DNA of 64,000 nt from Escherichia coli (GTDB lineage: Bacteria > Pseudomonadota > Gammaproteobacteria > Enterobacterales > Enterobacteriaceae), in the NCBI RefSeq assembly GCF_003334305.1, contig NZ_QOWS01000002.1; one strand, given 5' to 3'. The notes under the pieces were generated by a model. That model saw only the letters and a list, made by a program, of their open reading frames with translations, had not been told where the DNA came from and did no database searches. Shown here one piece after another: positions 14,153 to 15,277 of the stretch (position 1 is its first letter; each line of letters starts with the position of its first letter). Made by a program: the position numbers and the translations under genes.

Positions 14153-14350
14153 ATGAAATCATTAACCACAGAAACGGCGCTGGATATTCTGATTGCGTGG
14201 CTGCAGGACAATATTGACTGCGAATCAGGGATTATCTTCGACAACGATGAGGATAAAACGGATTCAGCAGCACTGCTGCCCTGCATTGAACAGGCCAGGG
14301 AAGATATCCGTACCCTGCGCCAACAGCAGCTTCTGCAACAGAACAGGTGA
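14153..14350 (+). CDS. Small hypothetical protein (65 aa)
   Basis: ORF followed by a terminator; weak ribosome-binding site. Confidence 0.3.
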   Translation: MKSLTTETALDILIAWLQDNIDCESGIIFDNDEDKTDSAALLPCIEQAREDIRTLRQQQLLQQNR

Positions 14351-14379
14351 GTCTTACTCACCAGACTTCATTCCACTGA

Positions 14380-14411
14380 CGCCAGCCTGAATACGGCTGG
14401 CGTTTTCGTTT
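14380..14411 (+). terminator. Rho-independent terminator
   Basis: CGCCAGCC-tgaatac-GGCTGGCG followed by TTTTCGTTT. Confidence 0.55.
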
Positions 14412-14431
14412 ATAAACCAAAAGGAAAAACG

Positions 14432-15277
14432 ATGATGTCAGATATCACAATCTCCCGCCCGGAACTGGTCAACGGACATACGGACGTTATCTGCTCAACC
14501 AGTATCCGCCACATTCTGGCTGTACGAAAGAGTGCGCTGCTGCAAATCGACACACTTATCCGGCAACTGGCTGAAATCTCGGTACTGACGGAAAGCATTG
14601 GCGGTAAAACCGCCCGGGACTGGGCCATGAAACAGGATTTTCGCTGCGGCTGCTGGCTCATGGAGAAACCGGAAACCGCAATGAAAGCCATCACCCGCAA
14701 TCTCGATCGCGAAATCTGGCGTGGCCTGATGCAACGTTCCGGGATGCTGTCATTAATGGATGCGCAGGCCCGTGATACATGGTACCGCTCACTGGAGTAC
14801 GATAACTTTCCGGAAATCAGTGAAGCGAACATTTGGAGCACATTTGAGCAACTGCACCAGAATAAGGATGACGTGTTTGAGCGAGGAGTGATCAACGTCT
14901 TCAGAGTGCTGAGCTGGAATTACAAAACCAACTCACCCTGTAAATTTGGCAGTAAAATTATCGTCAACAATCTGGTGAGGTGGGACCGGTGGGGATTTCA
15001 TCTGAACAGCGGGCAACAGGCAGATCGACTTACCGACCTGGAAAGAATGCTGCACCTGTTCAGCGGCAAACCGATCCCCGACAATCGGGAAAACATCACC
15101 ATTCATCTGGATGAGCACATCCAGTCTGTTCAGGGGAAAGAGGACTATGAAGATGAGATGTTCAGTATCAGATACTTTAAGAAGGGCTCCGCGTATATCA
15201 CGTTCAGAAAACCGGAACTGGTTGACCGACTGAATGATATTATTGCAGAACACTATCCTGACATGCTGTCAGTATAG
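14432..15277 (+). CDS. Hypothetical protein, 281 aa (possibly DUF4942-like), last island gene before the tRNA
   Basis: Clean ORF with AGGA ribosome-binding site; family name recalled from memory, not verified. Confidence 0.5.
   Translation: MMSDITISRPELVNGHTDVICSTSIRHILAVRKSALLQIDTLIRQLAEISVLTESIGGKTARDWAMKQDFRCGCWLMEKPETAMKAITRNLDREIWRGLMQRSGMLSLMDAQARDTWYRSLEYDNFPEISEANIWSTFEQLHQNKDDVFERGVINVFRVLSWNYKTNSPCKFGSKIIVNNLVRWDRWGFHLNSGQQADRLTDLERMLHLFSGKPIPDNRENITIHLDEHIQSVQGKEDYEDEMFSIRYFKKGSAYITFRKPELVDRLNDIIAEHYPDMLSV

Follow-up and report, generated by a model that had tools for sequence, protein, structure and literature searches.

What occupies the tip of a genomic island directly beside its tRNA gene, at a position where an integrase would normally be expected? 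We address this question for two adjacent genes in a window of 64,000 nucleotides (the whole stretch of DNA analysed, to which all positions refer unless another source is given) from the chromosome of Escherichia coli (contig NZ_QOWS01000002.1, assembly GCF_003334305.1). The end of a genomic island lies to the left of the tRNA gene serX in this window, and ghrA, ycdX, ycdY, ycdZ and csg genes lie to the right of it. A first-pass annotation made from the sequence alone had placed an open reading frame (ORF) of 65 amino acids (aa) and one of 281 aa at the island's tip, where an integrase seemed to be missing, and had assigned a family to neither with confidence. Here, we show that both genes are already known and annotated, very common and architecturally normal, and that they belong to the families DUF957 (65 aa) and DUF4942 (281 aa). 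We propose that they might form the tail of a leading-region-like establishment module common to islands and conjugative plasmids. For this reading as a whole, i.e., the module tail, an establishment or anti-defence role and a non-catalytic recognition domain, we see about even chances.

DUF4942 and the leading region of conjugative plasmids

The 281-aa protein matches Pfam family PF13708 (DUF4942) along the complete model (E 1.6e-66, 224 bits; residues 88-277, model positions 1-190 of 190), and it carries the residues found in invariant or near-invariant columns of a 67-sequence family alignment (W96, P127, LSWxYKTNxPxKFG, D202-L-x-R, N268 and a C-terminal HYPxxL), so that the earlier statement that no family could be assigned with confidence no longer applies. 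An exhaustive search recovered 2,066 DUF4942 representatives at 50% clustering. The best 150 of these 2,066 were mostly free-standing proteins of ~260-290 aa; some were shorter and apparently partial, and five were 460-560 aa long. Metagenomic contexts of distant homologues (n = 2) were too short to inform.

Full-length DUF4942 homologues with 35-39% identity to the island protein occur in 4,326 PLSDB plasmids, 3,962 of them conjugative. On an IncI-gamma/K1 plasmid, the DUF4942 gene lies two genes from nikA (mobA) and the origin of transfer (oriT), downstream of psiB, psiA and ardA and on the same strand. Its neighbours in pOXA-48-type IncL/M plasmids and in a related IncFII plasmid, where it is upstream of mobA, are genes for JAB, KlcA-type antirestriction and single-stranded DNA-binding (ssb) proteins. 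These contexts agree with a published survey of plasmid leading regions, the regions transferred first (Samuel et al. 2024, PMC11541004), in which DUF4942 corresponds to families 24 and 76 (YdiA/YgfB/Orf25) and ranks among the top leading-region-enriched families. According to Supplementary Table 1 of that study, family 24 (n = 2,171 members) is enriched at oriT (p = 0) with a median position of 1 and strand 1; family 72 (DUF5983/Aec77) is likewise leading-region-enriched, at median position 2 from oriT. Enrichment near oriT and location on the transferred strand are therefore both found for the DUF4942 family.

The likeness between plasmid and island copies extends to their neighbours. The YdiA/YgfB/Orf25 proteins of plasmids are full-length DUF4942 proteins of ~260-290 aa, and their genes are arrayed along one strand together with those for DUF905, DUF932-like, KlcA/ArdA, JAB and ssb. 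In contrast, the plasmid copies adjoin a known oriT and relaxase gene and are transferred first, whereas the island copy adjoins an attachment (att) site, with no relaxase or oriT recognised. We also noticed that IncL/M and related plasmids carry a conserved 59-aa ORF ~70 bp upstream of DUF4942 (extracts 8749-8928 and 8692-8871), which mirrors the island's layout of a small ORF followed by DUF4942. As an analogue of DUF957 this ORF was rejected, given that it has no detectable sequence similarity to it.

A median position of 1 from oriT among 2,171 plasmid family members (PMC11541004) and a place two genes from nikA in IncI/K plasmids could also be expected if DUF4942 were an accessory of the relaxosome or of oriT processing, and the island end would then bear a cryptic transfer origin. 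However, in IncL/M plasmids the DUF4942 gene is ~6 kb and more than 12 genes away from mobA, the intergenic regions on the oriT side of the plasmids have no sequence similarity to either island end, and no relaxase is annotated in the island. Furthermore, transfer genes are typically not found on the leading side. Taken together, we regard a relaxosome accessory as quite unlikely.

A confident model of DUF4942, built with AlphaFold2 (AF2) from an alignment of 67 sequences (27-56% identical homologues), reached a predicted local distance difference test score (pLDDT) of 88.7 and a predicted template modelling score (pTM) of 0.79. Its N-terminal half is helical, with helices at 25-55 and 80-160, whereas its C-terminal half is of the alpha/beta type; a cluster of conserved polar residues (D92, S161, Y164, N167, D202, R205 and N268) was also noted. 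Searches of the PDB by sequence, with the single sequence and with the 67-sequence profile, and by structure, with the AF2 model, returned no relative, and DUF4942 is accordingly predicted to adopt a new fold with no relative among solved structures. NCBIfam and PADLOC searches gave no match either. No characterised housekeeping homologue came to light, the NCBIfam, PADLOC and PDB sequence searches all being empty.

If some database names were followed, the 281-aa protein would be a DNA ("restriction") methyltransferase: close homologues are named "restriction methylase", "Restriction endonuclease subunit M" or "Methyltransferase" in their sources, and it matches phrog_6263, "DNA methyltransferase". 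Yet Pfam recognises DUF4942 alone in this protein and no methyltransferase family, and no PDB entry of Rossmann type matches the AF2 model. The S-adenosylmethionine (SAM)-binding motif EPSAGxG, the catalytic motif NPPF and the matches to MTS and N6_Mtase are confined to an extra C-terminal domain of the 460-560-aa relatives, from which the methylase names were apparently carried over. With no methyltransferase motif, no methyltransferase Pfam domain and no Rossmann-fold structural match in the 281-aa protein, we reject the methyltransferase reading as highly improbable.

The long relatives are nevertheless informative about what DUF4942 might do. In these fusions, found in phages and mobile elements (phrog_6263; P0186, P0214, P0243, P0261 and P0266), DUF4942 is joined to a class-I methyltransferase domain, an M.TaqI-like gamma-class N6-adenine one, whose best PDB match is the catalytic domain of M.TaqI (residues 19-113, E 1.4e-7). 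The N-terminal DUF4942 part of the fusions is homologous over its whole length to the window protein (37-40% identity), whereas the window protein ends where the methyltransferase domain starts and has no motif X, I or IV. Only ~90 residues follow NPPF in the long relatives, with no further domain and too little space for a recognition domain at the C terminus. phrog_6263 ("DNA methyltransferase") covers the DUF4942 domain too, and the phage homologues, which are rare (56 of 50,697 records), mostly bear methylase labels. Because no target-recognition domain besides DUF4942 is obvious in the fused enzymes, we infer that DUF4942 serves as their substrate-recognition module, probably by binding DNA. 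The window protein would thus be this new-fold domain on its own, whereas rare relatives carry the domain ahead of a minimal TaqI-like N6-adenine methyltransferase catalytic domain; in its solitary form, it would be expected to bind either incoming DNA or a host factor and to leave its target unmodified.

Architecture of the serX island and its integrase end

Both ORFs stand in the ORF list at exactly the coordinates that had been claimed for them. The features around them are as follows.

13648..14136, plus strand: DUF5983 family gene, YeeW-like (ORF list, RefSeq annotation, phrog_5003 match)
14153..14350, plus strand: 65-aa ATG ORF, DUF957 (ORF list, RefSeq names)
14378..14413, plus strand: terminator-like hairpin (14378-14404) and T-run between both genes (hairpin scan)
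14432..15277, plus strand: 281-aa ATG ORF, DUF4942 (ORF list, Pfam PF13708)
15352..15370, plus strand: paired GGCATAC N5 GGCATAC repeats, candidate arm-type integrase-binding sites (repeat comparison of the island ends)
15392..15420, minus strand: island-borne intrinsic-terminator-like hairpin serving serX (12-bp perfect arms, T-run)
15427..15440, minus strand: 14-bp att core, TGGCGGTGAGGGGG on the plus strand, the serX 3' end (repeated at the integrase end of the island)
15427..15514, minus strand: serX, tRNA-Ser(GGA) (ARAGORN; Rfam RF00005, 53.8 bits)

The DUF5983 gene directly precedes the two genes, and its start and the stop of cbtA overlap. RefSeq/PGAP starts the DUF4942 gene at the second ATG (14435), and the locus is 100% identical in annotated RefSeq genomes. 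Pairwise comparisons between diverged island copies (dS 0.2-0.6) gave dN/dS ratios of 0.09-0.15 for DUF957, 0.10-0.13 for DUF4942 and 0.25-0.31 for DUF5983; judged by these ratios, the DUF957 and DUF4942 ORFs are real genes under purifying selection. The terminator that had been ascribed to the 65-aa ORF is recognisable as the hairpin at 14378-14404, 3' of the gene, with a 10-bp stem containing 7 G-C pairs and followed by TTTTCGTTT (tail, TTTTCGTTTA). It is kept in four diverged island copies, without compensatory changes. No sigma-70-like promoter was found for the 281-aa gene, and an Rfam scan of 9000-16000 returned the tRNA as its sole match.

As the window starts inside the island, the far end was read in NZ_CP019008.1, where the locus is identical and to which the window aligns at 98.6-99.1%. 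The island is ~75 kb long in that genome, and its cargo includes fecIRABCDE, tet(B), an aspartate racemase/dcuA pair, sugar genes and a TOTE-like defence remnant. Its tyrosine integrase lies ~73 kb from the locus, at the opposite end and adjoining dgcT, and a 14-bp copy of the serX 3' end (TGGCGGTGAGGGGG in window orientation) is found ~160 bp past the start codon of the integrase gene. Near int there is also an HTH (AlpA-like) gene. The island thus has the traits of serX islands of the SRL PAI type: it is integrated at the serX 3' end, the end of the tRNA gene is directly repeated, and one boundary bears a tyrosine integrase. Pfam scans found no integrase domain in either ORF. The island is therefore complete, with its integrase located at the far end rather than missing. 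This removes the apparent anomaly, since the position next to serX is not the one at which this island keeps its integrase. The first-pass placement of the genes at the tRNA-proximal tip is correct, the 281-aa gene ending 150 bp from the serX 3' end.

Those 150 bp constitute an att arm, which includes the island-borne serX terminator (hairpin 15420-15392, within the island side of the att core). Pairs of GGCATAC with equal 5-nt spacing and equal orientation are present at both island ends, at 15352/15364 in the window and ~25 bp upstream of the int ATG (integrase-end extract ~7546-7572, NZ_CP019008.1), in each case 55-120 bp from the 14-bp att core. They are kept in other serX islands (O157 and uropathogenic E. 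coli, UPEC) and absent from a pheV-type island. Paired repeats near an att core are the usual look of arm-type integrase sites, and the GGCATAC pairs are likely candidates for the arm-type binding sites of the serX-island integrase. At the far end, a different hairpin with a T-run adjoins a partial copy of the core by dgcT (extract ~7716-7745) and is presumably the native serX terminator.

The position of DUF4942 is constant among the islands sampled. In all seven, at four tRNA sites (serX, pheV, pheU and ileY), no annotated gene stands between DUF4942 and the chromosomal flank; those at serX were the window island and islands with differing cargo from O157:H7, a canine UPEC strain and a broiler strain. 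The pheV-type island ends at yghD, with a copy of the tRNA-Phe 3' end ~130 bp downstream of DUF4942, and the pheU-type island ends at cadC. In the ileY island, the intact tRNA gene adjoins DUF4942, as at serX. What is constant is that the integrase occupies one end (examined at the serX site) and DUF4942 the other; which end abuts the intact tRNA is set by the tRNA's orientation, being the DUF4942 end at serX and ileY and the integrase end in pheV/pheU-type islands.

Such constant att adjacency would be explained if DUF4942, with or without DUF957, were a recombination directionality factor or an att-site accessory factor for excision and integration. In the three islands whose sequence was inspected for this (serX, pheV-type and ileY), 100-150 bp separate DUF4942, as the final gene, from the att core or tRNA, and at the pheU/cadC site no annotated gene follows it before the flank. 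In an excised circle, attP and int would be expected to come directly after DUF4942, with int pointing the same way. However, its plasmid homologues are not beside att sites, and an HTH (AlpA-like) gene already stands near int. The fact that one DUF4942 clade serves islands with unrelated att cores argues against site-specific binding. Moreover, known directionality factors are small basic DNA-bending proteins. We therefore consider a role in excision or integration very unlikely.

The module, DUF957 and the case for an establishment role

The pair and the genes upstream of it form a conserved accessory module, which makes up the integrase-distal end of tRNA-associated islands in E. coli and Shigella, with the order DUF905, DUF932, KlcA-type antirestriction, RadC/JAB, DUF987, YeeU, CbtA, DUF5983, DUF957 and DUF4942, and the order from DUF932 to DUF4942 was identical in every island opened. 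The first-pass annotation had asked whether the 281-aa protein co-occurs with the YeeP-to-YeeW module in other genomes. It does: of 5,426 complete E. coli genomes, 3,644 carry the DUF4942 gene at >=80% coverage (median, 2 copies), 3,684 genomes hold YeeU-CbtA-DUF5983-DUF957-DUF4942 as an uninterrupted block of five genes, and the linkage is essentially obligatory in E. coli. The cbeA-cbtA-yeeW segment of CP4-44 in E. coli K-12 is the same module up to yeeW (DUF5983), but there it is truncated; K-12 lacks DUF957 and DUF4942 because CP4-44 is broken off inside yeeW. The SRL PAI of Shigella carries orf55 and orf56, the same two families in the same order after YeeU, CbtA (YeeV) and YeeW-like genes, and this pair has been named DUF957 and DUF4942 (PMC6980539). 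The window island further resembles the SRL PAI in its serX integration and in fec, tet(B) and aspartate racemase. In the published SRL PAI table, L0011-like, IS110-family transposase and L0012-like ORFs follow orf56, whereas in the window island the 150-bp att arm and serX come directly 3' of DUF4942.

For the 65-aa gene, whose synonyms are SRL PAI orf55, L0009 and Aec78, RefSeq gives an identical protein at the locus, WP_000839253.1, "DUF957 domain-containing protein", and homologues at 82-98% identity bear the same name. A Pfam-A scan of the protein gave no match at E<=10, and none of the 120 homologues listed has a precomputed Pfam entry; the DUF957 Pfam family seems to have been retired while its name persists. 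The protein is acidic (pI 4.16), and its AF2 model (pLDDT 76.6; helices 6-22 and 36-64) predicts a helix-loop-helix with a conserved acidic loop, IIFDNDED. A homologue on an IncHI2 plasmid, at 40% identity, shares the motif WLxDNI...IIFDNDED. DUF957 was found in 1,427 plasmids, including large conjugative IncHI2 replicons such as the one inspected, in which it adjoins DUF3085 with neither CbtA nor DUF4942 nearby. Given this separate plasmid distribution, DUF957 and DUF4942 are independent units and not an obligate pair. DUF957 would accordingly be read as a small, acidic and helical protein that is independent of DUF4942 but shares its functional neighbourhood.

The strict co-linearity downstream of cbtA in thousands of genomes, along with the overlap between the cbtA stop and the DUF5983 start, is what would be expected if DUF5983, DUF957 and DUF4942 assisted or regulated CbtA/YeeU, the type IV toxin-antitoxin system encoded upstream of them. 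Several observations speak against such a dependence: DUF4942 occurs in 4,326 plasmids, and none of the three plasmid neighbourhoods inspected holds CbtA/YeeU; DUF957 stands by DUF3085 in IncHI2, with neither CbtA nor DUF4942 near; a terminator-like hairpin parts DUF957 from DUF4942; and CP4-44 of K-12 keeps CbtA/CbeA yet is without both genes. A toxin-antitoxin accessory is thus unlikely, and it is, like the methyltransferase, excision and relaxosome readings, less well supported than an establishment module.

The integrase-distal module is built of families that also fill the leading region of conjugative plasmids, among them the plasmid YdiA/YgfB family, typically next to oriT and read from the transferred strand, to which DUF4942 belongs. 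Under the establishment reading, DUF4942 would act early after the element's entry into a new cell, in establishment or anti-defence. The presence of leading-region families in the module, together with the location of DUF4942 at oriT in plasmids, makes an establishment or anti-defence role the most likely one.

Several results weigh against this reading and should be considered alongside it. For the island, "leading region" denotes homology and not demonstrated behaviour: between the plasmid DUF4942-nikA/mobA intergenic regions and both island ends, the search for oriT-like similarity gave one 12-nt chance match only; no relaxase was recognised in the islands or found among the annotations of the window island; and the island module contains no large hairpins resembling single-stranded DNA promoters, but only two small terminator-type hairpins. 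DUF4942 has no sequence or fold match to the known anti-restriction proteins ArdA, ArdB/KlcA, Ocr and ArdC, its similarity to I-DmoI is under conventional significance, and the near-neutral pI of the 281-aa protein (6.1) is not in itself suggestive of DNA binding. A literature search on DUF4942, PF13708, DUF957 and ydiA with "leading region" found no functional study. Finally, early induction on the IncI1 plasmid pESBL did not extend to all leading-region genes, and the operons named as induced do not include the DUF4942 homologue (NAR 2025, gkaf1299).

We are considerably more doubtful of a stronger version, in which DUF4942 would be a new-fold, non-enzymatic anti-restriction/establishment protein, acting as a free-standing module similar to a target-recognition domain that would bind incoming DNA or a defence complex of the host, and the integrase-distal module would be a functional "leading region" in which DUF4942, by attP, would be the first part to enter. 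If this were true, islands would move as single-stranded DNA from an unrecognised origin near the att site. The broader reading, in which DUF4942 is an anti-defence or establishment factor, would, if true, matter for understanding, and perhaps blocking, the spread of plasmids and islands. Among uncharacterised families that are enriched right where the leading region begins in resistance plasmids such as IncI1 and pOXA-48-type IncL/M, DUF4942 is one of the largest, and about two-thirds of complete E. coli genomes have it.

Variation within and around the module

Individual copies of the module genes vary. DUF4942 is frameshifted in strain UPEC957C (extract 6992-7835), and DUF5983 is shortened to 67 aa in strain B20105 (extract 3494-3697). 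A 227-aa ORF at 12113-12796, between DUF987 and YeeU, is variously named "hypothetical protein", "DUF8835 domain-containing" and "antitoxin of toxin-antitoxin stability system"; it has no NCBIfam match and is absent from some islands (L007, L009, L013 and L015).

The integrase-proximal part of the island, outside the window in NZ_CP019008.1 (extract 40404-48021), encodes a 1,652-aa AAA-domain protein, a frameshifted TOTE conflict-system primase-domain gene and an inovirus Gp2-type protein. The island thus bears remnants of defence systems besides its anti-defence-like module. Elsewhere in the island, an IrmA-family gene at ~9057-9511 is annotated as a frameshifted pseudogene in a near-identical genome (14958-15412) and is intact in the canine UPEC island (1492-1947). 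Compared with the near-identical island of Ecol_AZ159, the window shows a ~180-bp indel just past the end of an IS3 element (window 1-77), and a stretch inside the Ag43 gene (agn43) at 4483-5159 remains unaligned, which suggests variation in the passenger domain of this adhesin.
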